A stretch of DNA of 64,000 nucleotides from an uncultured Anaerolineaceae bacterium (GTDB taxonomy: Bacteria > Chloroflexota > Anaerolineae > Anaerolineales > UBA11579), in contig CAYJMC010000003.1 of the NCBI GenBank assembly GCA_964371335.1, positions 41,962 through 105,961 of the forward strand, in the 5' to 3' direction. The translations under genes and the position numbers were made by a program. Positions within the stretch are counted from its first letter, which is position 1; each line of letters starts with the position of its first letter. Positions 6,356 through 54,990 of the stretch are shown one piece after another. The notes beneath the pieces are model-generated. The model saw only the letters and a program-made list of their open reading frames with translations, ran no database searches and had not been told where the DNA came from.

Positions 6356-6539
6356 GAAAGAATTCTAACAGTACGGATTAGAAAAATAGCTCCGTGGCTT
6401 GACGATGCACTGGCGCCAAGCTAGCATCTAGCAAGTTTTTAGGGGTGCCTTTGTCCCCTTTCGCCTGTTACGCCGATTAATCTTATGTCAAGCTAAAAGC
6501 GCCGTTTCCACTGGTGCTTTGTCGAAAGGAGACTCGGAC

Positions 6540-12613: not shown

Positions 12614-13288
12614 TTAATTTTTTCTTGTCCTTTTCCCACCAAAAACAACCCAAATCGCCGCCGCGCCTGCAACAGTCAACACGCCGAGCGCAATGAACAC
12701 ATCCTGCCAAAAGCGAATGGGGAACATGCGAATTAGTGTGTCTGAGTACTGAAACAGCCAGGAGTCGCCTTCGAAAAAGATTCGGTGGAAACCGGTAAAA
12801 ATCGCGTTAAAACTAAGGGCGACAAAAATCAGCACGGTGACGATCAGTCCAATAGTCAATTGACCGCCGCGCACCATCCAGGCGCTGAACCGGGGGAAAA
12901 AGCCAAAATGCCAGGCCGCGGCGCCCAAGGCCACCAGCAGCGCCAGCGACAGCATCCACACATTCAATACGATCTGAGTCAAATCCTTGACGTCCTGCAT
13001 GTGGCCAAGTTCGCGTTCGTTATACATTGGCGCACCGTCGTCAAATCGCATTTCACCGAGGAAAGAAACATCCTCGTCATTCAACAAATACTCAAGGGCT
13101 AACTTGGCATTCTGGCGCCGTTCCGCAAAGGTCATTCCGTACGAATCGTCCGGGAAACCGGGCATGGAGTAAGCCAGGTCTACGTAGGTTGGGGTGAGCA
13201 AGATGCGAATCGACGTAAACAGGAGAACAAAAGGGATCGCAAGAGTAACCAGCCAACCCAATACAGCCAACCATGGGGATTTTTTCAT
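12614..13288 (-). CDS. TIGR01906/DUF1461-type integral membrane protein (Lit-like)
   Basis: N-terminal TM helix, then TPTYVDLAYSMPGFPDDSYGMTFAERRQNAKLALEYL, then C-terminal TM helices, as I recall for DUF1461. Its ATG overlaps the stop of the upstream gene. Confidence 0.55.
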   Translation of the reverse strand: MKKSPWLAVLGWLVTLAIPFVLLFTSIRILLTPTYVDLAYSMPGFPDDSYGMTFAERRQNAKLALEYLLNDEDVSFLGEMRFDDGAPMYNERELGHMQDVKDLTQIVLNVWMLSLALLVALGAAAWHFGFFPRFSAWMVRGGQLTIGLIVTVLIFVALSFNAIFTGFHRIFFEGDSWLFQYSDTLIRMFPIRFWQDVFIALGVLTVAGAAAIWVVFGGKRTRKN

Positions 13289-14841
13289 TGCAGATCCTCA
13301 ACTCCCTCGGAGCCTAGAAAGTTCAGCACCATTCTGTTTACCATCCATTCTACCGGGGCGCGCTCGTCGGTCAGCAATGTGCCTTCCGCCGGCGTCTCGC
13401 GCTGGTTAGCCAGAGCGCGCTCGATGGAAGCCAAGAGCAAAGGGTGAACGCCAGGCTGAGTCGACAGCAAATCGTAATTGGCCTGCAGGTTCTCGAACGT
13501 TGTCGGCTGCACCGTGGCATACAGAATTGAATTGAACGAATTGGGTACATCCATTACATGCACGCTGGGGAAGACCTGCAGCAGGGTGACCGCCATCGCG
13601 TCCACTAGGCTGCGATCCTCCGGCGTGCGGCCAACATTCATAGCGAGCACGCCGTCATCCGTGAGGTGCGCGCGGCACAACGCGAAGAATTCCACGGTGG
13701 ACAGGTGCGGGGGTATATACGGCGGGCGGTATGCATCGATCTCGATCAAGGAATACTTCTGATTGCCATGCTCCAAACCCCAGCGGCCATCTTGGGCAAC
13801 CACATTTAAATTGGACATCGTCATCCCGAAATATTCTCGCCCCACCTCGGCGATCTGGGGATCGAGCTCGTATCCATCGATGGGCAGGTCGCCGAAGACG
13901 GCGGTCGCCTGCCGGGCGGAGGTGCCGCCCGCCAGACCGATCACTGCGATGCGTTCGATGTCGATGGTCGCAAAGGGGGCTGCGTTAAAAAAGGGCGCCG
14001 CCAGAAATTGCTCCCAAGTACCGTGGAAATCTAACTGGTCCGGGTTGTACACTGAGTGGACGCCTTGCCCCTCGTTCAGGCGCAGGTAGCGCGTGCCGTT
14101 CAGTTCGAGCACCTGAATGTAGTTATAAGCCGATTCGGCTTCGTAGATTTGGCCGGTGCTGGCCTTGAATGCGCCGCCCGCCCATATCGCGGCCAGCACC
14201 ACCAGCAAAAGCGGCAGCCATAGCCAACGCGCTGCCGCCCGCCAGCCCCCGGATAGACCCAAACCCACCAAGGCGACCGCCATGAGAAAGCCGCTGAAAA
14301 TCAAGAAGGTGAAGGTGCTGCCAACCAGCGGAATGAATACCAAGACAGGCAGAAATGTCCCAATGAAAGAACCCAGGGTCGAAATGGCATACAAGCGCCC
14401 GGATACGCGGCCAGCGTGCTGCTTGTCGCTGAGCGCCAAGCGGATGGCAAAGGGGGAAACGGTGCCCAACAAGGTGACCGGCACGATGAAAAGCACCAGC
14501 ACCGAAACGAAGGAACCCGCCAGCACCGCAAGCTGCAGCTGATCAAACGCGTCAGCCGCGGCGCGCAAGACTGGTCGCGCCACCAAGGCGGCCGCCCCAG
14601 CGGTGAATGCTCCCCAAAGTATTATCAGGTAAAAGGTACTGAATCTCGGTGATCGATCCGCCCAGCGTCCGCCGATAAAGTAGCCCACGGTCAGATAGAT
14701 AAGAATAAGACCGATGATGCTGGCCCAAACCAGGTTGCTGGTGCCGAACACGTTGCCCAGCAAGCGCGAGGCGGTCAGCTCGACGGCCAAGGTTGTCATC
14801 CCGGCGGAGAATACGGCAAAAGAAAGGTAACGGGAGGACAT
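13285..14841 (-). CDS. membrane-anchored spermidine-synthase-like (aminopropyltransferase fold) protein
   Basis: About 220 aa of TM helices, then a SpeE-like domain (VIGLAGGTSARQ, LIEIDAYRPPYIP). The start is set to ATG 14841, 7 nt after TACAAT. Track ORF extends to 14874. Confidence 0.75.
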   Translation of the reverse strand: MSSRYLSFAVFSAGMTTLAVELTASRLLGNVFGTSNLVWASIIGLILIYLTVGYFIGGRWADRSPRFSTFYLIILWGAFTAGAAALVARPVLRAAADAFDQLQLAVLAGSFVSVLVLFIVPVTLLGTVSPFAIRLALSDKQHAGRVSGRLYAISTLGSFIGTFLPVLVFIPLVGSTFTFLIFSGFLMAVALVGLGLSGGWRAAARWLWLPLLLVVLAAIWAGGAFKASTGQIYEAESAYNYIQVLELNGTRYLRLNEGQGVHSVYNPDQLDFHGTWEQFLAAPFFNAAPFATIDIERIAVIGLAGGTSARQATAVFGDLPIDGYELDPQIAEVGREYFGMTMSNLNVVAQDGRWGLEHGNQKYSLIEIDAYRPPYIPPHLSTVEFFALCRAHLTDDGVLAMNVGRTPEDRSLVDAMAVTLLQVFPSVHVMDVPNSFNSILYATVQPTTFENLQANYDLLSTQPGVHPLLLASIERALANQRETPAEGTLLTDERAPVEWMVNRMVLNFLGSEGVEDLQ

Positions 14842-14920
14842 GGGCAGCATTGTAACGGCTAAGTCAACCCGCACTATGGGGAGAATTGCTTACCCGACCT
14901 AAGGTTACTCACCCATGATA

Positions 14921-18520: not shown

Positions 18521-19477
18521 ATGACATTCGCCCATGGAATCCACCACATTACAGCTATCGGGTCCGACCCGCAACGGCTGGTTGATTTTTATACCGAAGT
18601 CCTTGGTTTGCGCCTGGTCAAGAAGACGGTGAACCAGGACGATGTCAGCGCCTATCACCTCTTCTTCGGCGACCGCACCGGTGAACCCGGAATGGACCTC
18701 ACCTTCTTCACCTTCCCGCACGCCGAAGCCGGCTCCCGGGGTCGCGGACAGGTGACCAGCATTTCGCTGGCCGTCCCGAAAGAGTCGCTTAATTTCTGGC
18801 TCGATCGTTTCGAGCAATTTGAAGTTCGAAACGAGGGCATTTCAAAGTTATTCGATTGGGAGCGGATCATCTTCTTTGATTTCGATGACCAACGCCTCGA
18901 ACTGGTCGGCGTACCCGCTGAAGAGTTATTCGTTTCCCCCCATTTTTGGACCACAAACGAGATTAGCGCCCAACAGGCCATTCGTCATTTCCATTCCGCA
19001 TTGATGACTGTAACCAACAAGGCTTCCGTTGAATCGATTCTGTCCGAGGTGCTCGGCTATCAGACGGTTCAGACCAATGCAAACATGACCCTCTTTCATC
19101 ATGACGGGCTACAACGCGCCGCTTATCTCCAGGTCGAAGAAGCGCCTTCGCAGGCCATGGGTTACAACGCGGTTGGCACCGTGCACCATATCGCCTTTGC
19201 GGCAGAGAATGAGGCGATCCAAGATGAGCTGCGTGACAGGGTGATCCAATTGGGCTTAAAACCCACACAGGTTGTTGATCGTTTCTATTTCAAGTCGGTG
19301 TACTTCCGTATCCCAGCTGGGATCCTTTTCGAAATCGCCACCATGGGGCCGGGCTTCACCGCCGATGAAAACGAAGCCGAACTCGGCCAAAAGGTCTCGC
19401 TGCCGCCTTTCCTCGAGGAATATCGCAGCCAGATCGAAACGAACCTTGCTCCTGTTTTTACCAAGAAAGTTAATTAG
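18521..19477 (+). CDS. VOC-family ring-cleaving dioxygenase (MhqA/MhqO-like)
   Basis: Two glyoxalase/VOC repeats (GIHHITAIGSD...FYTEVLGLRLVKKTVNQDD; TVHHIAFAAEN...YFKSVYFRIPAGILFEIAT). Confidence 0.75.
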   Translation: MTFAHGIHHITAIGSDPQRLVDFYTEVLGLRLVKKTVNQDDVSAYHLFFGDRTGEPGMDLTFFTFPHAEAGSRGRGQVTSISLAVPKESLNFWLDRFEQFEVRNEGISKLFDWERIIFFDFDDQRLELVGVPAEELFVSPHFWTTNEISAQQAIRHFHSALMTVTNKASVESILSEVLGYQTVQTNANMTLFHHDGLQRAAYLQVEEAPSQAMGYNAVGTVHHIAFAAENEAIQDELRDRVIQLGLKPTQVVDRFYFKSVYFRIPAGILFEIATMGPGFTADENEAELGQKVSLPPFLEEYRSQIETNLAPVFTKKVN

Positions 19478-19711
19478 TAACGGAGCGAACTCCTCGCTTC
19501 CGGCAGACGTGAATTCGGTATAGGCAGCATAGGGATTTCTCGTCGGGCAGCAATGCTAAAGGCGTTGCTTCGCTTCGCTCGCAATAACGGGAGGGGCCTT
19601 AGACCCTCCCCTACAAATAATAATCTGCTGGTTTTGAATCAGTGTTCATCAGTGTTCATCTGTGGTTTAGAAATCGACCATTGCGTATAATCTATCGACC
19701 ACGGAGCACTA

Positions 19712-38865: not shown

Positions 38866-40662
38866 TCATCGCAGTGTGCACTCCACAGCCCGATAGACAC
38901 TCAGTGTTGGCGTCACGATCGTGCACCTCGCCACGGGGAAGATGACACGCAGCTCGCCCAGACTTTTTTCGGGGTAGGACAGGAAGAAATACACCCGAGG
39001 TTCCGTGATCGAGGCCATGTTGCTGACTGTCTCGTACTCGATCTCGTAAGTTTCCAGATAAGTGGTGAGCGCGAAATCGTAGCGAGTATTGTTGCCGTCA
39101 ATCAGAACCGGGATGGCTGGATCGGCTCGATCGGAGAATTCATTGATCACGTCGCGGACGGAATAACGGTCCAAATAAACACTGGCCGCAAGTCGCTCGT
39201 CCCGGTATTCAACGAAGTCCACATTTTCGGTGACCAAAACCTGTCGGATCAAAGTGGAGATGTTCCCATAGTATAGGAAGAAAGCCGCAGTCGCATAAAC
39301 GAAGAGCATAAATATTAGGGCGATTTCAATCCACTTCTTTCCTGATTTCGAGATCGCAGTAAACAGGTTGTGCAAGCCCAGCGTCGCCAACAGGAAGAAA
39401 GCGGGCATGCAAAAAAGGAAAGTTCTTGGTGGAGGGTCATCACCCCGCGCCATGCTAAGCAAAAAGGGCAGAAGGATGCTGGACCCCAAAAAAACAGAAG
39501 ACGCTAAGATTTCCTTTCTTCGTTTTGTAGAGATAAAAATACCCGTCAGCAAACCGGCGAGAGCTAATCCGAACACCAGCCAGCGGTTGGAACCAAAGGC
39601 GGAAAAGACTTCTATGAAACTATGTGTGAAGGCAGTTCCCTGTAAGAAGCCAATCGTGACGATGTATTTGTTATCCAAAACATCGTGGAGGATGGGTAAA
39701 TAGAAAACTACAGCAAGCAGACAACCCAATACGATCAAAATACAAATGGACAGGGCGGGATTTAGAACGTAAATATCATCTCTCTTCAAGGATATCTTGC
39801 CGGGAGAGGAACGCAGAGCCAAAAGCCCCGCCAGACCAAAATAGATTAACAGTCCGCCAAGCAAATAAAGATTCGAGGGCATGGTATAGAGCAACAGAGT
39901 ACAGAAAACTAAAATCACGGCGCCCGTTGCTAGGGTTGGACGATTCTTGTATTGAAGGATAGCCAAAAGCAATACGGAAACAAATAAGAGCGATGGCGCG
40001 TAACCGCGCACTTGGGCGGCAAAGTTTAGAAACGCAATAGTCGTCGTCCACAGAATCACAATAATGATGCTGGCATATCTTCCGATGAATCGATGCGCGG
40101 TAAAGGCGGCAACCGCAACGGCGGCAAGGCTGAACAATAAATAGAAAATGCGCAATATCTCGGGGGTCTGAAGCACATGAAGCAAATCCTTGGCGCCTAG
40201 TAACTGGAGATATATCCCCGAAAGGGCGTTTATAAAGACGTGATTATTGGGGACCGGATACCAGAAGAGGGCCCTGTCCATGGTTGTGACGATGTGTCTC
40301 CGGATCGAAATTAGCTCATCCAGCCAAAAATCCAGATGAAGGCGCTTGGTCGTGATCAAATACATAAAAGGCAGAGCCACAATCAGATTAGCCCCGATCA
40401 GGAACGCATTCTGCCTTAAGGTCTGAACTAAGGAGACGAAGCGGCTGCGCCGCTCAACGGCATACAGTATAAAGACAGCCAGGGACAGGGCAATGGAAAG
40501 ATAATAGAGGGGTCTGAGCAATAACAGTACATATTGAGTGTTAAAGAGATCGGCAAAGAATGAACTGGGGATCACACCCCGAAGGCCAAAGAGGCCGAAA
40601 ATCAGGGCTGGCCAAGCCAACCAAAGAAAGACATTCAGGCGGTTAATCAGAATGGCTTTCAT
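38866..40662 (-). CDS. large polytopic membrane protein, GT-C-fold glycosyltransferase-like (ArnT/PMT-like)
   Basis: About 13 TM helices, a first-loop DE motif (FWLDELISI), a soluble C-terminal domain, and visibly AT-richer sequence than the surroundings. Confidence 0.45.
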   Translation of the reverse strand: MKAILINRLNVFLWLAWPALIFGLFGLRGVIPSSFFADLFNTQYVLLLLRPLYYLSIALSLAVFILYAVERRSRFVSLVQTLRQNAFLIGANLIVALPFMYLITTKRLHLDFWLDELISIRRHIVTTMDRALFWYPVPNNHVFINALSGIYLQLLGAKDLLHVLQTPEILRIFYLLFSLAAVAVAAFTAHRFIGRYASIIIVILWTTTIAFLNFAAQVRGYAPSLLFVSVLLLAILQYKNRPTLATGAVILVFCTLLLYTMPSNLYLLGGLLIYFGLAGLLALRSSPGKISLKRDDIYVLNPALSICILIVLGCLLAVVFYLPILHDVLDNKYIVTIGFLQGTAFTHSFIEVFSAFGSNRWLVFGLALAGLLTGIFISTKRRKEILASSVFLGSSILLPFLLSMARGDDPPPRTFLFCMPAFFLLATLGLHNLFTAISKSGKKWIEIALIFMLFVYATAAFFLYYGNISTLIRQVLVTENVDFVEYRDERLAASVYLDRYSVRDVINEFSDRADPAIPVLIDGNNTRYDFALTTYLETYEIEYETVSNMASITEPRVYFFLSYPEKSLGELRVIFPVARCTIVTPTLSVYRAVECTLR

Positions 40663-41889: not shown

Positions 41890-42435
41890 TTATTCCACGA
41901 TGATCTCTACGTAGATCTGGACGCCAAAGGGTTGCTCGATCTGGTCGTGAGCCTTCCAGGCAGAGCGGTAGGTGCCCGGTTGCTGGGGCGCAGTGAACTG
42001 GATGGTGATTTCCACTACGTCGCCGGGCACGGCTTCAGGCAGGGCCTGGCGGTCAATGGCGCCCATGGCGATGCCATCCACGAGGCGCAGGGAGTAGCCG
42101 CGCCCCCAGGCGCAGCTGCCATCGTTGCGCACTTGCCAGGTTTTGACGATGGGCTGGCCGGCGAGGAAATGCTGGCCGTCTGGAACGGTGATGTCTTGCA
42201 TGAAGACCAGGTCGTTCTCGCAGGGCGGCGTCGCCGTTGCCGGCATCGGGGTGTGCGTTTCTAATATGAGCGGGGTGGCGTTGCCGATCAGGGTCGGGGC
42301 GACGAACGGCGCCTGGTTGGCGGGCAGCGCCGAACGCGTGCAGGCGGCTACGAATAAAAGAACGCCCACGGTGAGCAGCAAGCTCCTCACAGGAGCGCTC
42401 TTTTTAAGTTGGTTCCAACCGATAATGTTGAACAT
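41890..42435 (-). CDS. lipoprotein with NBR1-like Ig (FW) domain
   Basis: Lipobox LFVAAC, then DGQHFLAGQPIVKTWQVRNDGSCAW...PGDVVEITIQFTAPQQPGTYRSAWKAHD. Confidence 0.6.
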   Translation of the reverse strand: MFNIIGWNQLKKSAPVRSLLLTVGVLLFVAACTRSALPANQAPFVAPTLIGNATPLILETHTPMPATATPPCENDLVFMQDITVPDGQHFLAGQPIVKTWQVRNDGSCAWGRGYSLRLVDGIAMGAIDRQALPEAVPGDVVEITIQFTAPQQPGTYRSAWKAHDQIEQPFGVQIYVEIIVE

Positions 42436-44594: not shown

Positions 44595-46274
44595 ATGAAA
44601 TTCGCCAAAATGTGGTTGGTCGCCCTGTTTTTGTTATTAACCGCGTGTGGTTCCGCAGAACAGATCGAAACACCGTCTTCGACCGAAAACCATGTCGAGG
44701 AGGTGGAGGAAGTTGAACCCGTCAACATCGATGTGACCCTGGATAATTCTCATGCGGTTAGCCAGGTGATCCCAATTACCGGCGGCAGTTTGACCACCAC
44801 TGGGGCCGACGGCACTACTTATACGCTGGATATTCCGGATGACGCGCTGATCTATGAAACTGAGATCACCATGACCCCTGCAGAGTTCTCAGGGTTGCCT
44901 GCTGGCCTTGAACCAGGCCCCGGCGTACAACTGGAGTCGGAAGGGTTGAGCTTGTTTAACTTCGCCACGCTGACCATAATTCCTGCACGCGAGATCCCCA
45001 TTGATCAGCAGGTATTTTTTGGTTATGCGGCGGATGGGCAGGATCTTTCTCTGGCCTTGCCGGATATCGATAGCAGCGAAATAAAAATTCAACTGCTACA
45101 TTTCAGTGGCTATTTCGTGGGCACCGGCAACCTGGAGAATATCGCGGCTGTCCTTCCGCAACGCGGCGGAGCGGTGGTCCGGGAATTGAGCAACAAAGTG
45201 GCGGAAATGACGCAGCGCGAACGCCAGCGCCAGCAATTGGAGGGGAGAAAACCGCTAGCCCCCGAATATTCGAGCGAATTGGCCAAGATCTTCCAGGAGT
45301 ATTACGTTAGGTACGTCAAAGTGTATTTGGATATTTCCGGGGAGAGCTGTTCGAAGGGACGCCTGGCCATTGATATCTATGGGCACTATGCGCAGTTGAT
45401 GAGAAAAGTTGGACTCGCCGATCGCATCGTCGAGCTGGATTATCTCGCCCTGGTGGAAAAGGTGGCAGGTATCTGCCTGCAGGAAGAATACAACATGTGC
45501 GTCAACGAACATGTGGTGCATCGCATGATCCCTATCTTGCTTGGCCTTGAGCGGCAAATGCAGCTTACGCGCGAAGCCCTGGGACTTGGTGAAGAAAGCG
45601 CCTCGTCCTCCGCGCTTTTGCAACGCGCCAGACAGCTCACTGAGAAATGCTTGCGCTTCGAACTGGAGTTTACGTCCACCTCTACCGGGCCGGCCGCCGG
45701 GGGCGATGCCGGCGGCTCGGGAGAGATCAGGGTTTCGGTGAGCGCATCCGTTCCCATCCGCCTCACCGACTTCGTCCTGTCTGGGGAAGCTCCCTTGGTG
45801 CACGAGGATTTCTCCGCGGTCCTGGAAGGTTGCACCACAATCATTTACCCTGCCAGCGGCTTCGAAGACGGCAAATTCAGCGTGAGCGGACTCAGCTGGG
45901 CCATCGAAAAGTCCATTCACGTTGATAGCGGCGAAGTGACGTTCAAACTTACCGATCTTAATGTGCGTTTCGATGCTGACAGCCGCGATCTTTTTGCTTT
46001 CGGGGGTAATTGCAATCCCGGCCTTGTAATTAGTCCCGACCAGGTTTCCCACTGGGACCTGGTTTTTTTCGAACGGCACAGCGACCAAGTTTGCGGGGTG
46101 TTGGGTACGGGGGATCAACGGCTGGAAGCACTCTGTGCCGGGTCAACTGGCATTTATATTTTTGAAGGCTGGCAGATTTTGGGCGATGAGCTGTTTGCCA
46201 CCCTGGAATGGAACAGGGAAGGGTTATACACAGAGAGCGGGTCCTTCCTCATCTATCACCGCCCGGGAAAGTAG
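44595..46274 (+). CDS. lipoprotein of unknown function (559 aa)
   Basis: Signal peptide with lipobox LLLTAC and an AGAGG RBS. I recognised no family. Confidence 0.65.
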   Translation: MKFAKMWLVALFLLLTACGSAEQIETPSSTENHVEEVEEVEPVNIDVTLDNSHAVSQVIPITGGSLTTTGADGTTYTLDIPDDALIYETEITMTPAEFSGLPAGLEPGPGVQLESEGLSLFNFATLTIIPAREIPIDQQVFFGYAADGQDLSLALPDIDSSEIKIQLLHFSGYFVGTGNLENIAAVLPQRGGAVVRELSNKVAEMTQRERQRQQLEGRKPLAPEYSSELAKIFQEYYVRYVKVYLDISGESCSKGRLAIDIYGHYAQLMRKVGLADRIVELDYLALVEKVAGICLQEEYNMCVNEHVVHRMIPILLGLERQMQLTREALGLGEESASSSALLQRARQLTEKCLRFELEFTSTSTGPAAGGDAGGSGEIRVSVSASVPIRLTDFVLSGEAPLVHEDFSAVLEGCTTIIYPASGFEDGKFSVSGLSWAIEKSIHVDSGEVTFKLTDLNVRFDADSRDLFAFGGNCNPGLVISPDQVSHWDLVFFERHSDQVCGVLGTGDQRLEALCAGSTGIYIFEGWQILGDELFATLEWNREGLYTESGSFLIYHRPGK

Positions 46275-46696: not shown

Positions 46697-47056
46697 TCAA
46701 TCGAGGTGAAGGGTCAGCGCCAAGGCAGTTTCGATTTGCCGCATCTGCTCCACCCCCAATTCGCCCACTTTTTTCACCAGGCACTGTTCGCTGACCGAGC
46801 GCACCTGAAAACAATCCACGGCAGATTTCTTAACCAGGCCTATCTTGGGGTTGCGATCCAGGGGAACCAGCCAGGGAGCTTTGGCAAACTCTTCGCGCCA
46901 ACCGGTAATGGGCACTATGATCTTGAGAGGAAGAATGCCTATGGAATCCCGGCTGACGATGACAGCCGGGCGCGATTTGCGAATTTCCGACCCGATGCTT
47001 GGGTCGAGATTGACCTGCCAGATCTCGCCCCTACGCATGCCAGTCTTCGGCATCAA
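46697..47056 (-). CDS. mazF: MazF/PemK-family type II toxin (mRNA interferase)
   Basis: RRGEIWQVNLDPSIGSEIRKSRPAVIVS and IVPITG are typical of PemK/MazF. The real start is possibly at 47038 (MRRGEIW). Confidence 0.85.
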   Translation of the reverse strand: MMPKTGMRRGEIWQVNLDPSIGSEIRKSRPAVIVSRDSIGILPLKIIVPITGWREEFAKAPWLVPLDRNPKIGLVKKSAVDCFQVRSVSEQCLVKKVGELGVEQMRQIETALALTLHLD

Positions 47057-47300
47057 GGTCGGTGAAGGTGGTTAGGTCCTCATCGGCCGCATAAGTAGCG
47101 CGCAGTTCGCGTGCCGCCTGGTGAAGCCTGGCTTCTTTGGCGGTACGCATCTTTTCGCCTACCAGTTCGCGGATCAAGGCAGACACGCTCTTTCCGCTCT
47201 TTTTAGATACGCGGGCAAGGTATTTCTGCTGCTCATCATCCAGCAGGACCTGCAGACGGCGAAGCTTTTGCTTAACGTTCACTGACCCAATGATACACAT
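47031..47300 (-). CDS. ribbon-helix-helix (CopG/MazE-like) antitoxin
   Basis: LQVLLDDEQQKYLARVSKKSGKSVSALIRELV is an RHH pattern. It overlaps the toxin start. The real start may be GTG 47282. Confidence 0.7.
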   Translation of the reverse strand: MCIIGSVNVKQKLRRLQVLLDDEQQKYLARVSKKSGKSVSALIRELVGEKMRTAKEARLHQAARELRATYAADEDLTTFTDLDAEDWHA

Positions 47301-47463: not shown

Positions 47464-48009
47464 TTACGAGTCCCCCAGGATTTGTCCCACGCGTTCGCGC
47501 AGCACCTCTACGGTCATCGGCCCGCCAATCACCACCGCTTGGATGATCCCATCGCCATCGATGAAGAAGGAGGTGGGCAGCCCGCGCAACTGGTAGGCCT
47601 CCTCCACCCGGCCATCCTGATCAAGGAGGATGGGGAAGGTCAGCTCATGTTCCTCAACGAAAGCTTCCACCGAGCTGAGCATGTCTTTTTTGGTTAGATT
47701 CACCGCCAGCACCATAAAGCCCTGATCGCTGAATTCCTCGTAGGCTTGCTGAATGGCGGGCATCTCATATTTGCACGGCGTGCACCAGCTCGCCCACATA
47801 TTGACCAACACCGGTTGCCCCCTAAATTCGGATAAGCTAACGAGCTCTCCATCCAGGGTCTGCAGGCTGAAATCCGGCGCCAGCAGGCCGGGCTGCGGGC
47901 CCGGGATGAGCGCGTCCACTGGGCTTGGCTGCCGCGCGGCGGCAAACCAAAGCCCGCTCACCCCGATCAGCGCAAACGCAAGGAAAAAAGTCTTCCTGGG
48001 TACGAACAT
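47464..48009 (-). CDS. TlpA/ResA-like membrane-anchored thiol:disulfide oxidoreductase
   Basis: N-terminal TM anchor and the WASWCTPC thioredoxin active site. Confidence 0.85.
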   Translation of the reverse strand: MFVPRKTFFLAFALIGVSGLWFAAARQPSPVDALIPGPQPGLLAPDFSLQTLDGELVSLSEFRGQPVLVNMWASWCTPCKYEMPAIQQAYEEFSDQGFMVLAVNLTKKDMLSSVEAFVEEHELTFPILLDQDGRVEEAYQLRGLPTSFFIDGDGIIQAVVIGGPMTVEVLRERVGQILGDS

Positions 48010-48074
48010 TTTCCGCTTACCAGCCCGTCAGCGGAGGCGGCCAACGCCGCCTCCGCTGGCTTTGGGCGAACCGG

Positions 48075-48521
48075 CTAGTTCTCGAGCACGATCAGGTAGC
48101 CAACCATGGTGCCATGGTCGGCGTCGCACTCACCCTCGGCGGCGTCCTGAGGGATGTTGCACATCCATTGGAAGACGCCGGACTGATCGGCGGTGAATTC
48201 CAATGTGACCTCGCCTGTGCGCGCTTCGAGCGGACCCGTGTCCAGGTTGTATCCGGGCAGGAAGAAGGAATGGATGTTCTTGCGCGGGTTCATCACTGTC
48301 AAGTTGACGTTGTCACCCTTATGGACGACGAGGACGTTGGGTTCCCAGCGATGGTACTCGCCGGTCAAAGCCTCTGCCCCGTCCACTTCGCCAATCACTT
48401 CGCCTTCACCCATGATGACGGTGAAGTTCTGGGTGCCGCCGGCCCCGGCCGCCGGCTGGCAGGCGGCGAGCACCAGCAGCAAGCCCGCAGCAATGAGAAA
48501 AACAAACAACTTCGATTTCAT
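48075..48521 (-). CDS. CoxB-like (CuA-type) cupredoxin lipoprotein with expanded metal loop
   Basis: Lipobox LVLAAC. NIHSFFLPGYN resembles the cytochrome oxidase subunit II motif VIHSFWVP. The C-terminal CNIPQDAAEGECDADHGTM reads C-x11-C-x3-H-x2-M. AAGGAG RBS. Confidence 0.65.
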   Translation of the reverse strand: MKSKLFVFLIAAGLLLVLAACQPAAGAGGTQNFTVIMGEGEVIGEVDGAEALTGEYHRWEPNVLVVHKGDNVNLTVMNPRKNIHSFFLPGYNLDTGPLEARTGEVTLEFTADQSGVFQWMCNIPQDAAEGECDADHGTMVGYLIVLEN

Positions 48522-48575
48522 TTTCTGTCTCCTTTGATAGTTGAAAAAATTATTTTCGGTAATCCAGCGATTAGG

Positions 48576-48905
48576 CTAGTTCACCACCATATGTGGACTC
48601 CTTTCGACCTTGGTTTCCCCCTCGGCGCCCGAAGTAACTTGCGCGTCCTGTCTCTCGCAGAGCAGCTGCCAGGAATCGAAAGCCTCGGGCCAATTCCCTT
48701 CATCCAAAACCAGGAGCTTGCTTCCATCCCAATCTTTGATATAGAAAGTAGCCTCGTTATGGCCATCGTCAACGGATTCGACGATGCATCCGCCGGGTTC
48801 GAAATTCCAGCCTGCGCCTCTGGCCTTGAGCAGCTTGGCGCCGAAACTGGCTTCGCAAGCTCCCAGCCAGCAGGAACATTGGGTGCGATCCATGTAGATT
48901 TTCAT
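48576..48905 (-). CDS. Cys-rich small protein of unknown function
   Basis: GGAGG RBS before ATG 48905. MKIYMDRTQCSCWLGACE... with 5 Cys. The track extension to 48983 overlaps the upstream gene. Confidence 0.45.
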   Translation of the reverse strand: MKIYMDRTQCSCWLGACEASFGAKLLKARGAGWNFEPGGCIVESVDDGHNEATFYIKDWDGSKLLVLDEGNWPEAFDSWQLLCERQDAQVTSGAEGETKVERSPHMVVN

Positions 48906-48928
48906 TTGCGTACCTCCAGTGATCCTGG

Positions 48929-49768
48929 TCAGCCTCGTTGAATGCGGAAGACCTGATAGAGCACGGTGCCAAATACAGCCCACACCCCACCCAGCACAAC
49001 AAACAGAATGAGGGCCAAAGACAGCGGGGGTGTAGGCGACGAGAGCGCACTGGGAACGTAGACCACAGATTCTTCGGATGCGGAAATCTCAGCGGATGTC
49101 TGCGCAAATCCAAACCCGCCTCCGCCTTCGAACTGGGCAGTGACCTTTAACGTCTTCCCCGGCATTGCCGGAATGGCGATCACCGCGCTGCCGTTTTCGA
49201 TAGTGATCGGCCCACCCAGTTCCAATTCGCCCCCGACCGCGGTGGCGAGCGTAAAGAGGATGGGCACGTCGCCGATCGGCTTGCCGCGCGCGTCCTGCAG
49301 CACGGCGCGCGCCAGGTTACTGCCATCGCCGCGGGGCTCGAGTTCGATGGACAGGAAAGTCAGGGCGCCAGATGTATGCGGCTCCACAACTCGGATGGCC
49401 CCACCCAGGAGATGGTCCATGCCGATACAGGGGATGACGCATAAAATGCGCAGGATCCCCGTTTCGGTGGGCGTGAAGGTGATGGAAGCAGTGGGATGTT
49501 CGCGGCTGAGAGTTACCGTGGGCAGATTCAGGCCGCGACCCACGATCTGGATCTCGTGGGGATTATCCTGGTCTAGGTGCTCGTCATAGTTGAAGGTTAT
49601 GGTGATCTGGTGCCCCGCCTCGACCTCGATCATATAGTTGCCGGATTGATCGAAGCCGTCTTTACTGACGGAGATGGTGATGGTGTGCGAATAGGCCTGC
49701 ACGGAAAGCGGGCTGACCGTTGCGACCAGAAAGGCCAGAACGAGCGCGGGGATTAATTTTCGCAACAT
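48929..49768 (-). CDS. secreted, C-terminally TM-anchored protein with N-terminal cupredoxin-like domain
   Basis: Signal peptide MLRKLIPALVLAFLVATVSPLSVQA, NPHEIQIV...GILRILCVIPCIGMDHLL (C-x3-C-x4-H), a second beta domain, and a C-terminal TM helix. The start lies 2 nt after the nrfD-like stop. Confidence 0.55.
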   Translation of the reverse strand: MLRKLIPALVLAFLVATVSPLSVQAYSHTITISVSKDGFDQSGNYMIEVEAGHQITITFNYDEHLDQDNPHEIQIVGRGLNLPTVTLSREHPTASITFTPTETGILRILCVIPCIGMDHLLGGAIRVVEPHTSGALTFLSIELEPRGDGSNLARAVLQDARGKPIGDVPILFTLATAVGGELELGGPITIENGSAVIAIPAMPGKTLKVTAQFEGGGGFGFAQTSAEISASEESVVYVPSALSSPTPPLSLALILFVVLGGVWAVFGTVLYQVFRIQRG

Positions 49769-49770
49769 AG

Positions 49771-51381
49771 TTACACCTCTGGGGAAGATGTGGTGGCGGG
49801 TTGCTTCAAAGCAGGGCTGAAACCTCGAACGGGTTCTTCCGCTTTGCGCTGGTGCAGCGTCTCCCACACCGAGACAATGGGGACCATGCGCGAGATAAAG
49901 AAATAAATCAGCAGGAAACCGGCCATAGAGCCCGCGGTGATGGCCCATTCGATCCAGGTTGGGCGGTAAAGCACTTCGCTGATAGCTGAATTCGGGAGGA
50001 AGGGATGTTCCATGACGGGAACAACGATAATGAAACGCTTCACCCAGGCCTGAATGACGATGAGGCTCGAGGCAATCACGAAAATGGCGATGGGCCGAGC
50101 CTGAAGCACGGGGATCAATGAAACGGCAAATAAACCGGCCAGAATCAAGCCACCAATGCGCAGGACCAAGGCCAGCGGAGCCAGGTCAAGGCCAACCATG
50201 GATTGGAAGAACGCCGGGGCGAAGGAAGCGGCGATAAAAGCAACGGCAGCGGCCGCCAGGGGGATGGGGCGCAACAAATGAATGCGCTTCAACCACTCGA
50301 TCGGTTTCATCATCGAAAATGCAAGCAGGAAGGCCGGGACGAGCAGGCCAAGGATTTGCGTAAACCAAAACATGCCTGCATACGAGCCGCTGAATAGATC
50401 GGTCAGCAAGGCCTTATCGGACGATTCCATCTTGTAGGCCAGGGTGACGTATTCAGAAATATTGAAGTAAAGGTAAGTCAGATCCAGCGTCAAAACCAGA
50501 GTCGCCATGTTCTTGAAGTGGCGCAGGGTGATGAATTCTTCAAGGTGATACATTTTGCGGAAAACAACCATGGCCAGCACCACCGAGGCGGCTCCCGAGG
50601 CCAGGGCGCCGGCGACGAAATACGGCCCAAAGATCGTGGAGTTCCAGCCGGGACGCAATGTCATGGCAAAGATCCACGAGACGACGGTGTGCACCATGAT
50701 GGCGACCGGAAGGATCAATACGGCCATGGCATTCATGGCACGCTCCAGGCGCGCGTGCTGCTCAGGAGTCCCGCGCCAGCCAAAGGAGAACAGCTTGTAT
50801 ATCCAACGCCGCCAGAAAGGTGCGTTGGTGAATTTGTCTCGCAGCAGAGCCATATCGGGGATTAACGGCAAGAGCAGGAAAATAGTCGAACCGGTCAGGT
50901 AGGTGGTGATGGAGAGAATGTCCCAAAGGATCGGCGACTGCAAGCGTCCATGCAGCAACAGGTTCAGCACGCGCTCCGGGCGTCCCAGGTCGATGATGGG
51001 CATCAGCGCGCCCATCAACAGGGCGGCGAAGGTAATCGCTTCCGCCATGCGCGTGATGGGATGCCGCCATTGGGCTCCGGTCAGCCGCAGAATGGAAGAC
51101 AGCAGCGCCCCCACGTGGCTGATGCCGATGAAGAATACGAAGTTGGTGATGTAAAGCCCCCAGGATACGGTATCGCCCATCCCAGTCACGGATAAACCGG
51201 TTTGCCATTGGACAAAGTAGGCATAGATACCCACCAGGACGACGGCGCCCAGCGCGCCGATGGTAAGGTAGGTGCCCCGCCCCCATTTAACGACCGGGGC
51301 AAGCAATGTCCTTTCTTGTGAATTGAGGCTTTCCAAACCTGCTGAAGCCTTTTTCGCAGAGCCGGCAATCGTCGTAGTCAT
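49771..51381 (-). CDS. NrfD/PsrC/ActC-like polytopic quinol-interacting membrane subunit
   Basis: 536 aa, many TM helices, and the N-terminal pattern of the NrfD family. It lies immediately downstream of the FeS subunit gene. Confidence 0.8.
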   Translation of the reverse strand: MTTTIAGSAKKASAGLESLNSQERTLLAPVVKWGRGTYLTIGALGAVVLVGIYAYFVQWQTGLSVTGMGDTVSWGLYITNFVFFIGISHVGALLSSILRLTGAQWRHPITRMAEAITFAALLMGALMPIIDLGRPERVLNLLLHGRLQSPILWDILSITTYLTGSTIFLLLPLIPDMALLRDKFTNAPFWRRWIYKLFSFGWRGTPEQHARLERAMNAMAVLILPVAIMVHTVVSWIFAMTLRPGWNSTIFGPYFVAGALASGAASVVLAMVVFRKMYHLEEFITLRHFKNMATLVLTLDLTYLYFNISEYVTLAYKMESSDKALLTDLFSGSYAGMFWFTQILGLLVPAFLLAFSMMKPIEWLKRIHLLRPIPLAAAAVAFIAASFAPAFFQSMVGLDLAPLALVLRIGGLILAGLFAVSLIPVLQARPIAIFVIASSLIVIQAWVKRFIIVVPVMEHPFLPNSAISEVLYRPTWIEWAITAGSMAGFLLIYFFISRMVPIVSVWETLHQRKAEEPVRGFSPALKQPATTSSPEV

Positions 51382-51393
51382 GTGTGCGTACCT

Positions 51394-52242
51394 TTACCCT
51401 TGAGCGGCGGGATGGTCGGCGGATAATTGTTCGGATGGCGCCTGGGCTTGCATGGTGCGCGGCGGCAGGTACCAAACGCGCGGCTCCGTGCCAAGTTCTT
51501 CCAGGTGGCGTTCAGCAGCCCCCTCGACCAGCAGGTCGCTGAACCGCAGGGTTTCACCCTGGCTGTTGGTTACGGCGTCCTCGTTCTCATCGCCAAAATA
51601 GATGGCGCCCATTGGGCAGCCGCTCACGCAAGACGGGAGCAGGCCCTGGCTGGTGAGCGAGGGGCAAAACAGGCACTTTTCGACCACCCCTTTTCGATGA
51701 GGCATGTTCATCTCGACGGAATAGTCTTCGGCCAGTTCTTGCTCGGTATGAGGCGGCTCGGCCCAGTTGAAATAGCGAGCGGAATACGGGCAGGCGGCCA
51801 TGCAGATGCGGCAACCGATGCAGCGATCCTGATCGATCAGCACCAGGCCATCCGAGCGTTTGTAGGTGGCATCCACGGGGCACACGTTCACGCAGGGAGG
51901 ATTGTCGCAATGCATACAGGGGCGCGGGAAGAAATAGGAACTTTCCAATGTGGGGTGCTGCATTTTGTAGACTTTGATCCACTCCTGCCCTGTGGGAACC
52001 ATGTGCATCGCCGAGCAGGCGTCGGTGCAGGCCCCGCAGCCGTCGCAGCGCGCCAGGTCGATGACCATCACCCAACGGTGATTGCCTCCGCCGGTGTCTC
52101 CGGGGTGAGCGCTGCCGCGCAGCGCGGAACGCAGTGCAGGGCCGACGACTTCGCCGACTTTTGGAGCGGCAATAACTGCTGCCGCCGTGCCCAGGCCGGC
52201 CAGCTTTAGGAATTCACGTCTGTTGATTTTTTGATCTGCCAT
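51394..52242 (-). CDS. Tat-exported 4x[4Fe-4S] ferredoxin subunit (NrfC/PsrB/DmsB/ActB2-like)
   Basis: Twin-arginine signal NRREFLKLAGLG. Cys clusters CDGCGACTDAC, CMHCDNPPCVNVCP, CIGCRICMAACP and CLFCPS...CVSGCP. Confidence 0.9.
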   Translation of the reverse strand: MADQKINRREFLKLAGLGTAAAVIAAPKVGEVVGPALRSALRGSAHPGDTGGGNHRWVMVIDLARCDGCGACTDACSAMHMVPTGQEWIKVYKMQHPTLESSYFFPRPCMHCDNPPCVNVCPVDATYKRSDGLVLIDQDRCIGCRICMAACPYSARYFNWAEPPHTEQELAEDYSVEMNMPHRKGVVEKCLFCPSLTSQGLLPSCVSGCPMGAIYFGDENEDAVTNSQGETLRFSDLLVEGAAERHLEELGTEPRVWYLPPRTMQAQAPSEQLSADHPAAQG

Positions 52243-52298
52243 TTTTTAGATAATCCTCAGGTCGTTTTTTTCTAATTTCACTCGCAATGCTGACTCTT

Positions 52299-52865
52299 CT
52301 AGTCTTCCGCCATGCCTAACAATTCTTCCAATTCATGATTTACATCATGCGTGTCCCCAAACTCAATCGCCTGGATCATTTCGTCATACACGGCGGCAGC
52401 CTCATCAGTGGTCAGGGCCATCGCCTGTTGGAGATGATTGATGGCCACTTCGCTATCCACGGTTTCGGAGTCATTGATTGCTGCATAAGCCGCCATCAAG
52501 TGCGCTTTTTCTTCATCACTCGGCATGATGTCGGCATGGGTTTCCTTTCGCTCGGAGTCCAAACTGAGCGCATATTGCACCAGGAGCTCTAGGTCGCTAT
52601 CAGGCAGCAAGGTGGAAGAAAAGGTCGGCATATTGCCTGCCGGATTGCGAACCTGGCTCATGATCTCTTCGGAATCATGACCGAAAATGGAAGGCGCCGA
52701 AGCGCTGCCAGTCCCGTCGCCCCCGTGGCAGCTCGCACAAAAGGCATCAAATTGGCTCTTGCCCTGCGCCGCGGTGTCGGGCCCAGCTTGGGAAGACGCG
52801 GAGGGGCCGCAGGCTGCCAGCACCAAACCGGCCAAAGCAAAAACGGCAAGCAGTTTAGCGATCAT
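52299..52865 (-). CDS. monohaem c-type cytochrome lipoprotein (ActE-like) with helical C-terminal extension
   Basis: AGGAG lies 5 nt before ATG 52865. Lipobox LVLAAC, a single CASCH haem motif, and a distal Met candidate (GNMPTF). Confidence 0.8.
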   Translation of the reverse strand: MIAKLLAVFALAGLVLAACGPSASSQAGPDTAAQGKSQFDAFCASCHGGDGTGSASAPSIFGHDSEEIMSQVRNPAGNMPTFSSTLLPDSDLELLVQYALSLDSERKETHADIMPSDEEKAHLMAAYAAINDSETVDSEVAINHLQQAMALTTDEAAAVYDEMIQAIEFGDTHDVNHELEELLGMAED

Positions 52866-53907: not shown

Positions 53908-54990
53908 TCATCGCCCTTCGCTTAGCTCGACGGTTTGGCGTTCAGGTTGGCGCCTGAACTTGGAGGACAGGGGCAGAGCAATCTTGAACGTGGCCCCCTC
54001 GCCGGGTTGGCTCTCCACCCAAATCCTGCCATCCATTGCTTCGATCAATCGCCGGCTGATGTACAAACCAAGGCCGTAACCATAGGTTTCCTTTGAATCT
54101 TTCGAATCCAGTCGGTGGAATTTCTCGAAAATTCGTTTCCGGTCCTGGTCAAAAATACCCGGACCCTGATCGCTAACGGAAATGATGCTTTCTCCATCCT
54201 GAACCGCCACCGCCAGGGTGACATCGCTGTCGACCGGCGAATATTTCATCGCATTGTCCACTAGATTGGCAATGACCTCGTAAAGAAAGTCCCGATCGGC
54301 CCACACCAGCGGATGCAGGTCGCCCTGCGGTCGCCGCAAACGGTGCCCCGTTTGTCGGGCAGAGAATTCATCGAATACATGATCGGCGACTTGTAAGACG
54401 TCCACCTCGGCGCGGTTCACGTTTAATCCTCCCGCCTCGATCCGCGAAACGTTCAGCACCTCGTCCACCATGCGGGTCAACCGGCTGACCTGTTCATTCA
54501 TGATCGCCAGGATGGGTGCGCCATTTTGGTCCAATGGGTTTTCCTCCCCTTCGATAAGCTCCAACGCGCTGCGCATATTGGTTAACGGGGCGCGCAATTC
54601 GTGCGAAACAAGCGAAACAAACTCGGACTTCATCCGGTCGAGCTGCTGCAAGTCTGCGTTGGCAATTGCCAAAGCCTCGTTTTTCTTGCGCAGCTCGTGC
54701 GTGCGTTCGTCGACGCGTTGCTGCAGTTCCACGTTCAGGCGATAGACTTCGGCTTCAGCCTCTTCTTTCTCGGCCAACCAATGGCGGATCTGGCGTAGCA
54801 CGAACCAAACCGTTATGGGTCCCACCGTCCCATAGAACAAGATCTCAACCCCCCAGTGGATGTCGTGACCAAAGTTATCGTGCACATAGAGAGCCGGCCC
54901 CAGTTGAAAAAACGTGGCCAAGACGACGATACTGAGCGGCATTGCCCACTGAAGCAAACCTATGCGCTTGGATAGAGTGGAAGGTTTCAT
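53908..54990 (-). CDS. sensor histidine kinase (HisKA/HATPase_c)
   Basis: Two TM helices, H-box SHELRAPLT, N-box NLVDNAMKY, and G-boxes DQGPGI and GYGLGL. Confidence 0.9.
   Translation of the reverse strand: MKPSTLSKRIGLLQWAMPLSIVVLATFFQLGPALYVHDNFGHDIHWGVEILFYGTVGPITVWFVLRQIRHWLAEKEEAEAEVYRLNVELQQRVDERTHELRKKNEALAIANADLQQLDRMKSEFVSLVSHELRAPLTNMRSALELIEGEENPLDQNGAPILAIMNEQVSRLTRMVDEVLNVSRIEAGGLNVNRAEVDVLQVADHVFDEFSARQTGHRLRRPQGDLHPLVWADRDFLYEVIANLVDNAMKYSPVDSDVTLAVAVQDGESIISVSDQGPGIFDQDRKRIFEKFHRLDSKDSKETYGYGLGLYISRRLIEAMDGRIWVESQPGEGATFKIALPLSSKFRRQPERQTVELSEGR

Follow-up and report, generated by a model that had tools for sequence, protein, structure and literature searches.

An NrfCD-type redox module with a cupredoxin-bearing third subunit in an uncultured Anaerolineaceae bacterium

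The DNA analyzed here, which we refer to as the window, is a 64-kb stretch from an uncultured Anaerolineaceae bacterium (positions 41,962 to 105,961 of contig CAYJMC010000003.1, assembly GCA_964371335.1), and forms part of an ENA metagenome contig (NODE_137) of 120.8 kb. Positions 47464-52865 of the window contain seven open reading frames (ORFs), all on the minus strand and located where the initial annotation had placed them, which together specify a redox module centred upon an iron-sulfur (FeS) protein and an NrfD-type membrane subunit. From the cytochrome to the thioredoxin-like protein, with lengths in amino acids (aa), they are:

52299-52865, minus strand: monohaem c-type cytochrome lipoprotein, 188 aa
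51394-52242, minus strand: NrfC/DsrO/PsrB-type FeS protein, 282 aa
49771-51381, minus strand: NrfD-type membrane subunit, 536 aa
48929-49768, minus strand: gene 4, cupredoxin subunit with immunoglobulin-like (Ig) domain and transmembrane (TM) helix, hereafter the Ig/TM subunit, 279 aa
48576-48905, minus strand: Cys-rich protein, 109 aa
48075-48521, minus strand: gene 6, lipoprotein cupredoxin, 148 aa
47464-48009, minus strand: ResA/TlpA-family thioredoxin-like protein, 181 aa

The gaps between these genes, in the same order, are 56, 12, 2, 23, 54 and 65 nt. The public annotation of the source contig at ENA/NCBI lists seven identical products (188, 282, 536, 279, 109, 148 and 181 aa), so that the tight packing of seven genes on one strand, with gaps of 2-65 nt, is borne out both by the coordinates and by independent calls. 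The seven-gene block is a real, conserved operon.

The membrane subunit was placed through hidden Markov model and pairwise scores. It possesses a PF03916 (NrfD) domain (6e-33) and, judged by hydropathy, about 10-12 TM segments; a sequence search returned thousands of relatives of this NrfD-like protein. Among PDB chains its sole strong matches are to ActC of alternative complex III (ACIII), as represented by entries 6btm, 6lod, 8k9e and 6f0k (4e-55 to 5e-53), while ActF is matched at 2e-4 with 24 bits versus 191 bits for ActC. The subunit had been described as NrfD/ActC-like, and these scores allow one to be more specific: it is ActC-like. Residues of the ActC quinol site have been listed by Calisto & Pereira (PMC8076601). 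S149 and D154 of our protein align with Ser164 and Asp169 of R. marinus ActC, D131 aligns with His139 and I237 with Asp253. An Asp at the position of His139 is also found in DsrP, QrcD and HybB (PMC8076601). S149, D154 and D131 are invariant in 12 diverse members of the family. Some 70-80 residues of the membrane subunit, a hydrophobic insertion that includes segments at 367-391 and 405-423, have no counterpart in ActC.

Translation of the FeS gene revealed a twin-arginine translocation (Tat) motif, RREFLK, and 16 Cys residues arranged in four ferredoxin motifs (C66/69/72/76, C109/112/117/121, C141/144/147/151 and C190/193/205/209). Only ferredoxin and Tat matches were found in Pfam (Fer4_11, 3e-23), and in NCBIfam the protein scored 194.5 bits against DsrO (cutoff 200) and 128.6 bits against NrfC (cutoff 377.6), with QrcC and TtrB also below their cutoffs. 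It is related to PsrB (2vpw_B, 6e-33) and to ActB (6e-24), the latter through the B2 region only (ActB residues ~770-990); the molybdopterin-like B1 domain is absent from this 282-aa protein. The Tat motif, the four Cys motifs and the domain scan all uphold the view that this is a Tat-exported four-cluster ferredoxin, without a molybdopterin-like domain.

In the AlphaFold2 model of the gene 4 product (pLDDT, predicted local distance difference test, 74.8) a signal peptide precedes two beta-sandwich domains, and residues 249-278 form a C-terminal helix. The initial annotation had seen a TM-anchored cupredoxin-like protein; the cupredoxin domain and the C-terminal TM helix stand, and what had been missed is a middle domain which is Ig-like of the Big_1 type (Big_1 and Big_3_5 matches below the Pfam cutoff). 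A Foldseek search with the whole model returned generic tandem Ig/FN3 matches only and did not resolve the identity of the N-terminal domain. By hhalign this domain matches the gene 6 family with a probability of 96.9 % (1e-10) and a family of CoxB-linked cupredoxins with one of 91.7 %. The counterparts of H71, C110, C114 and M117 in the CuA motif are His, Cys, Cys and His. None of the four residues varies among 26 homologues; in those further removed the motif reads C-x3-C-x2-H.

Gene 6 scored 24.6 bits against Cupredoxin_1 (cutoff 27), with weak matches to nitrosocyanin, NosZ and CoxB, and its hhalign match to the CoxB-linked cupredoxins is 97.4 % (1e-11). With an AlphaFold2 model of pLDDT 85.5, the best Foldseek match is nitrosocyanin (6e-9, TM-score 0.77), followed by domains of NirK and by the CuA domain of NosZ (root-mean-square deviation 1.3 Å over 93 columns). 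Its putative copper ligands are H84 and a loop reading C121-x10-C132-x3-H136-x2-M139, in which the spacing between the two Cys residues is 10 versus 3 in CuA. H84, C121, C132, D135 and H136 are invariant and M139 is present in most homologues. Judged by these residues, the C-terminal half of gene 6 is of CuA type, with a longer loop between the two Cys. The proposal of two CuA-type cupredoxins thus stands in part: homology to CoxB-type CuA (92-97 % by hhalign) and the alignment of the ligand positions support it, and the canonical CuA motif occurs in neither protein. A long N-terminal beta-hairpin of gene 6 (residues 38-60) carries the motifs GEG and GE[YF]HRWEP, invariant in gene 6 and 24 homologues, which could bind a further metal or a substrate, or serve as a surface for docking.

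The cytochrome possesses, by translation, one CxxCH motif, a lipobox (LAAC) and an axial-Met motif (GNMP), and it matches Cytochrome_CBB3 in Pfam (3e-12). It had been termed ActE-like, a name that comparison with the PDB does not bear out: the best matches are QcrC, the cytochrome c subunit of the actinobacterial bc1 complex, and CcoP (4e-7), with ActE of ACIII at 0.0035-0.15. We have dropped a specific ActE identity and would describe the protein, from its motifs and scores, as a class-I monohaem lipoprotein that is not specifically ActE. Its C-terminal extension is helical, rich in His, Met, Asp and Glu, and conserved in the related loci L001, L006 and L019 of the set described below. This extension of ~85 residues (window 52299-52560) contains repeated His motifs (aHL, I.HL and HE.EELLG), matches no family, and is duplicated in L019.

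The thioredoxin-like protein has an AhpC-TSA/Redoxin fold (AhpC-TSA, 5e-34, Pfam), a WCTPC motif, and an N-terminal hydrophobic segment (residues 7-25) which would serve as a membrane anchor. Described at first as TlpA-type, it is closer to ResA both in NCBIfam (134.6 bits, cutoff 170, versus 82 bits, cutoff 230, for TlpA) and in a PDB search (94 versus 74 bits). By sequence it is a member of the ResA/TlpA/DsbE superfamily and, being nearer to ResA than to TlpA, might equally well function in cytochrome c maturation. The Cys-rich protein, in which C10, C12, C17 and C40 are conserved, has no signal peptide and matched no family in Pfam or NCBIfam; homologues occur only in the three closest loci (L004-L006), at the same position and with 74-88 bits.

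Searches with one genome per species recovered 548 related loci. The best 80, representing 79 distinct loci, were taken for comparison, and the ORFs called in these 79 were assigned by means of profiles made with the proteins of the window. The best 80 of the 548 all derive from metagenome-assembled genomes (MAGs) or uncultured bins, and they belong to the Chloroflexota, Armatimonadota, Acidobacteriota (Terriglobia), Planctomycetota, Thermoplasmatota, Nitrososphaeria and others. The seven-gene order is repeated exactly in L006, an Anaerolineaceae MAG with 78 % identity, where, as in the window, genes for a sensor histidine kinase (HK) and a response regulator (RR) precede cytochrome c, NrfC, NrfD, Ig/TM, Cys-rich protein, cupredoxin and thioredoxin. 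Over the wider set the order is not kept as a whole; the conserved unit is NrfC, NrfD and the Ig/TM subunit, accompanied by variable carriers and a regulator.

With contig-end cases set aside, the Ig/TM subunit is found in every locus in which the FeS protein scores at least ~240 bits. It lies downstream of NrfD, or in the Terriglobia is fused to the C-terminus of NrfD (~680 aa). The seven loci with FeS scores below 185 bits all possess a molybdopterin subunit and none has an Ig/TM gene, whereas in the Ig/TM loci no molybdopterin subunit lies beside the scored pair; that of L013 accompanies another, weaker NrfCD pair. From this split among the 79 loci it follows that the Ig/TM subunit is the diagnostic third subunit of a molybdopterin-free subfamily. 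We also considered that a molybdopterin subunit had merely been overlooked, and rejected this since it is only in a distant NrfC/NrfD subgroup devoid of Ig/TM that these subunits are found.

A profile search with the Ig/TM subunit returned 612 cluster representatives (E<=1e-3). Its N-terminal domain is a CuA-derived cupredoxin in the window, L019, L036, L040 (Thaumarchaeota), L045 and L063, a monohaem cytochrome c in L010, L018 and L027, and another CxxCH-bearing domain in L060; it is absent in L003, L031 and the Terriglobia. Many of the loci without this domain (L003 and most Terriglobia) have a separate cupredoxin gene nearby, which in the Terriglobia is directly upstream of NrfC and specifies the canonical C-x3-C-x3-H-x2-M. 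Natural NrfD-Ig and NrfD-cytochrome fusions also exist. To judge from these sequences, an N-terminal domain which is exchanged between cupredoxin, cytochrome c and nothing at all displays the pattern expected of an electron exit domain.

Among 142 operon-linked neighbours, Pfam recorded cytochrome c 15 times, Cupredoxin_1 13 times, response regulators 10 times, Paired_CXXCH multihaem cytochromes 10 times and MtrC/MtrF-like domains eight times. The listing of the 25 commonest neighbour families contains no oxidase, reductase or molybdoenzyme. The redox partners that can be recognised in the operons of the 79 loci are electron carriers, as would fit a quinol:carrier oxidoreductase. L004 and L005 lack the cytochrome and the thioredoxin and have classic type-1 blue-copper lipoproteins instead; these are followed (L004 14065-15571, L005 13215-14721) by two conserved membrane proteins of ~150 and 344 aa, without cofactor motifs or Pfam matches. 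In L024, a groundwater Chloroflexi MAG whose Ig/TM subunit is of the cytochrome c type, an 881-aa decahaem cytochrome (4494-7139, plus strand) lies directly downstream of Ig/TM; its MtrC/MtrF domain II/IV (95.6 bits, cutoff 30) is the one such domain checked individually that clears its cutoff. Cytochromes with 8-10 haems adjoin the module in L020, L026 and L027.

In seven Terriglobia loci the module is preceded by a gene for a 945-aa protein, and in five of the seven there is a decahaem Paired_CXXCH cytochrome as well. In these five (L037, L044, L046, L050 and L067, at about 4.2-12.1 kb) the decahaem, the ~945-aa protein, a cupredoxin with the canonical CuA motif, NrfC and the NrfD-Ig/TM fusion follow one another in this order. 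The ~945-aa protein, which has no Pfam match, looks like an outer-membrane beta-barrel, and the operon as a whole resembles a conduit of porin and cytochrome that is connected to the quinone pool via a cupredoxin.

The block is larger than the initial annotation had it, as three further genes lie directly upstream on the same strand:

53908-54990, minus strand: sensor HK (HisKA + HATPase_c), 360 aa
53196-53906, minus strand: OmpR-type RR (Response_reg + Trans_reg_C), 236 aa
52855-53088, minus strand: small conserved coiled-coil ORF, 77 aa

The RR gene overlaps the HK stop. Hydropathy shows two hydrophobic stretches near the N-terminus of the HK, peaking at residues 10-34 and 47-65; the loop between them is very short, and the protein lacks an extracytoplasmic sensor domain. 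Neither regulator corresponds to a specific NCBIfam equivalog, heavy-metal or other, nor does either reach the heavy-metal cutoffs. L001 and L004-L007 have such a pair immediately 5' of the module, and the position of the RR is kept in relatives. The coiled-coil ORF occupies the 330-nt apparent gap between the RR and cytochrome genes. Its first ~58 aa are conserved; tblastn located it, with 53-72 % identity and at the same position, in L004, L005, L006 and L007, and in L004 and L005 it has been called as a 60-61-aa gene. Substitutions cluster at third codon positions (28/46, 24/43 and 38/70). This ORF may be regulatory.

A family scan covered the genes within ~10 kb of the module and the largest ORFs elsewhere in the window. 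The window ORFs scanned included no molybdopterin or multihaem gene, no gene for a haem-copper oxidase and none for NosZ or an Nrf/Psr catalytic subunit, which agrees with the earlier statement that the module has no catalytic subunit nearby. Nor did these ORFs, over 64 kb, include an adjacent canonical ACIII operon or other catalytic partner. With one NrfD gene and one CxxCH in the cluster, the reported lack of a pentahaem ActA, of ActD and of ActF was likewise confirmed.

Based upon these observations, we suggest that the block specifies a regulated three-subunit quinol dehydrogenase together with its mobile carriers, that is, a menaquinol:cupredoxin/cytochrome c oxidoreductase, and put the probability of this at roughly 0.55. 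All of the redox partners carry export or anchor signals, namely lipoboxes, a signal peptide with C-terminal TM helix, or an N-terminal anchor, which places the redox parts on the outer face of the membrane. The ActC-like NrfD subunit would bind menaquinol on the outer (P) side of the membrane, and the electrons would then cross the four [4Fe-4S] clusters of the Tat-exported NrfC/DsrO-like subunit. Their next stop would be the copper centre of the gene 4 cupredoxin domain, presumably kept above the membrane by the Ig-like domain and TM helix, from which they would pass to the lipoprotein cytochrome c and/or the lipoprotein cupredoxin. Such transfer is downhill, from menaquinol at ~-70 mV to a cupredoxin or cytochrome c at ~+200 to +300 mV. 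The carriers would serve a terminal acceptor encoded elsewhere, be it an oxidase, an N-oxide reductase or an extracellular acceptor. One would assume that the ResA/TlpA-like thioredoxin keeps the cysteines of the copper sites and of CxxCH reduced during cofactor insertion, and that the adjacent two-component system controls expression, the module thus being conditional.

Gene content, extracytoplasmic topology signals, homologies, partial conservation of the quinone site, and a three-subunit core across phyla are established for the module. The notion of a quinol:cupredoxin/cytochrome c oxidoreductase, already put forward in the initial annotation, gains from the ActC-like subunit, the FeS motifs and the carrier-only partners; the direction of flow, the acceptor, the metal content of the copper sites, a physical complex and proton translocation are what we infer. 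Several points weigh against this assignment. Function has been read from sequence and models, with no acceptor gene found among the window ORFs scanned, and one and the same architecture could work in reverse. Asp253 of the ActC quinol site is replaced by Ile (I237). Both copper-site motifs depart from the CuA pattern H...C-x3-C-x3-H-x2-M, that of gene 4 (H71...C110-x3-C114-x2-M117) having Met for the second His and Leu for the axial Met. Copper-resistance genes near some loci (L001 and L003), together with His/Met-rich cupredoxins, hint at a copper-specific role, and the proposed path assigns no part to the coiled-coil ORF, the Cys-rich protein or the GE[YF]HRWEP motif of gene 6.

Reverse operation would make the same complex a cupredoxin/cytochrome c:quinone reductase driven by the proton-motive force via NrfD, with gene 6 as a substrate-facing oxidase. 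Fe(II), Cu(I) and Mn(II) are conceivable donors, as is an electrode-like mineral to which multihaem cytochromes would give access. We consider this unlikely: with menaquinone the reaction would run ~300 mV uphill, ActC, the nearest relative of the membrane subunit, is a quinol oxidase, and no substrate-oxidising enzyme was identified. Gene 6 is the protein that speaks for it, through the invariant acidic and His residues of GEG and GE[YF]HRWEP, which are additional to those of the copper loop, and through its best structural match, nitrosocyanin, a protein suspected to be catalytic rather than a pure carrier. NrfD-type modules such as QrcCD are moreover known as quinone reductases, and the Terriglobia arrangement of decahaem and putative beta-barrel would serve extracellular electron transfer in either direction. 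The Anaerolineae are mostly described as organoheterotrophs, which also counts against reverse operation.

Copper homeostasis would offer a different function for the operon: copper stress in the envelope would be sensed by the two-component system, and the NrfCD/cupredoxin proteins would change the redox state of extracytoplasmic copper, for example through O2-independent oxidation of Cu(I), quinone being the acceptor; alternatively, they would repair cuproproteins or protect them. In L001 (226-5818) the module is close to genes for the P-type ATPase CopA, an HMA protein, a cupredoxin encoded next to copA, and a cupredoxin rich in His and Met, and L003 has CueP and a redoxin nearby (18691-19709), although copper genes close to cuproprotein genes may simply supply the cofactor. 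Cupredoxins with a His/Met-rich insertion, which we presume to resemble CopI, lie beside the module in 11 loci, but many loci pair the module with cytochromes only. The His/Met/Asp/Glu-rich extension of the cytochrome and the possession of a dedicated regulator would suit a copper function; yet the HK has no periplasmic sensor domain of the CusS/CopS type, both regulators fall short of the heavy-metal models in NCBIfam, and no copper transporter or chaperone was found among the window ORFs scanned. On balance we regard this explanation as improbable. We give equally little credence to a role in metal-oxide respiration, where the module would act as inner-membrane quinol dehydrogenase and feed an extracellular electron-transfer chain, as NetBCD or CymA does for MtrCAB. 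The decahaem of L024, the 8-10-haem cytochromes and the Terriglobia putative porins and decahaems agree with such a role, and NetBCD, itself of the NrfCD type, is accepted as a quinol dehydrogenase serving Mtr. Near the module, however, the window and its closest relatives have only monohaem cytochrome and cupredoxins, so that this reading suits other branches of the family and not this locus.

Enolase and CTP synthase genes lie 5' of the HK, and a PemK toxin-antitoxin pair and a 559-aa ORF without family match lie 3' of the module. In the public gene calls this pair (window 46697-47300, minus strand) is directly 3' of the thioredoxin gene and consists of a PemK-family toxin (113 aa) and, upstream of and overlapping the toxin gene, an 89-aa ORF which is probably the antitoxin. 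The rest of the window contains housekeeping genes (MutS, AlaRS, RecA, SAH (S-adenosylhomocysteine) hydrolase etc.), two-component regulators and family-less ORFs. Four of its ORFs, 38866-40662 (minus strand), 44595-46274 (plus), 6519-8687 (plus) and 13285-14874 (minus), specify proteins of 529-722 aa without Pfam match, the first two also without NCBIfam match, and a 181-aa ORF (41890-42435) carries an N_BRCA1_IG Ig-like domain. No tRNA genes are present in the 64 kb. The G+C content is 49-60 % in 2-kb windows with no break at the cluster, and a promoter and terminator scan of the locus was uninformative, terminator-like matches occurring at the level of shuffled sequence.

To return to the menaquinol:cupredoxin/cytochrome c oxidoreductase, its NrfC, ActC-like NrfD and Ig/TM subunits might represent a new and widespread class of quinol:periplasmic-carrier oxidoreductase beside bc1/b6f and ACIII, with an interchangeable exit domain, which in this instance would hold a new Cys2-His-Met copper centre, and perhaps with conservation of energy via ActC-like proton paths. 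We offer this broader proposal tentatively, the odds being somewhat against it. Lineages represented solely by MAGs often have no assigned link from the quinone pool to periplasmic copper proteins or cytochromes, a gap which the three-subunit module could fill. The Ig/TM subunit serves as the mark of this module, which occurs in at least five bacterial and several archaeal phyla; if the proposal is true, it would alter the inference from genomes of respiration, denitrification and extracellular electron transfer. The module is also a small, tractable relative of ACIII in which ActC-type coupling of quinol oxidation to proton movement might be studied, and those concerned with copper-site chemistry may find its two variant CuA-derived sites of interest.

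The initial annotation did not recognise this gene set from described NrfD-family complexes, and we found no account of it in the searchable full-text literature, which does not extend to subscription-only works. The copper-induced "NrfD" of Kineococcus was considered as a described example and rejected, having been reported with co-expressed formate dehydrogenases. In composition the module departs from ACIII, NrfCD/NetBCD, DsrMKJOP and the complex iron-sulfur molybdoenzymes (CISM) alike. From the last group (Psr, Ttr, Dms and Arr) it differs in that no molybdopterin catalytic subunit is present in the window or beside the Ig/TM-bearing pairs. With DsrMKJOP it shares its best NCBIfam scores (DsrO, 194.5 bits, cutoff 200; DsrP, 110.7 bits) and the Asp at the quinone protonation position, but the DsrP score is far from the cutoff of 350, and neither DsrM, DsrK or DsrJ nor sulfur-metabolism genes were found near the module. 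Its cupredoxins resemble CuA of CoxB and NosZ, and nitrosocyanin, in the aligned His, Cys, Cys and His/Met positions and, in gene 6, in C-x3-H-x2-M; unlike the CuA domains, neither belongs to an oxidase or an N2O reductase.

The closest parallels are two. NrfBCD of nitrite reduction and NetBCD of Aeromonas extracellular electron transfer also combine an FeS protein with a cofactor-less NrfD, have no catalytic subunit of their own and hand electrons to periplasmic carriers. They differ in possessing the pentahaem NrfB/NetB, for which the module has the Ig/TM cupredoxin (elsewhere a monohaem cytochrome), in their NrfC (128.6 bits for our protein, against a cutoff of 377.6), and in an NrfD of the short 8-TM type as opposed to one that is ActC-like with ~10-12 TM segments. 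ACIII, a quinol:cytochrome c/auracyanin oxidoreductase, shares with the module an ActC-type membrane subunit, an FeS subunit on the P side, periplasmic monohaem or blue-copper acceptors, and occurrence in the Chloroflexota; the blue-copper lipoproteins which replace the cytochrome in L004 and L005 recall ACIII and auracyanin. The module lacks the ActB B1 domain, ActF, the pentahaem ActA and ActD, its FeS protein is DsrO/PsrB-like with four 4-Cys motifs, and the Ig/TM-cupredoxin subunit is extra; the monohaem lipoprotein found here scores 0.0035-0.15 against ActE of ACIII and 4e-7 against QcrC/CcoP. We class the module as an NrfCD/ActBC dimeric redox module with a new, presumptive exit subunit, composed of an ActC-like, a DsrO/PsrB-like and an Ig/TM-cupredoxin protein. 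By analogy it would function as a stripped-down counterpart of ACIII or of NrfBCD/NetBCD, in which the haem-bearing exit subunits have been replaced by a tethered cupredoxin.

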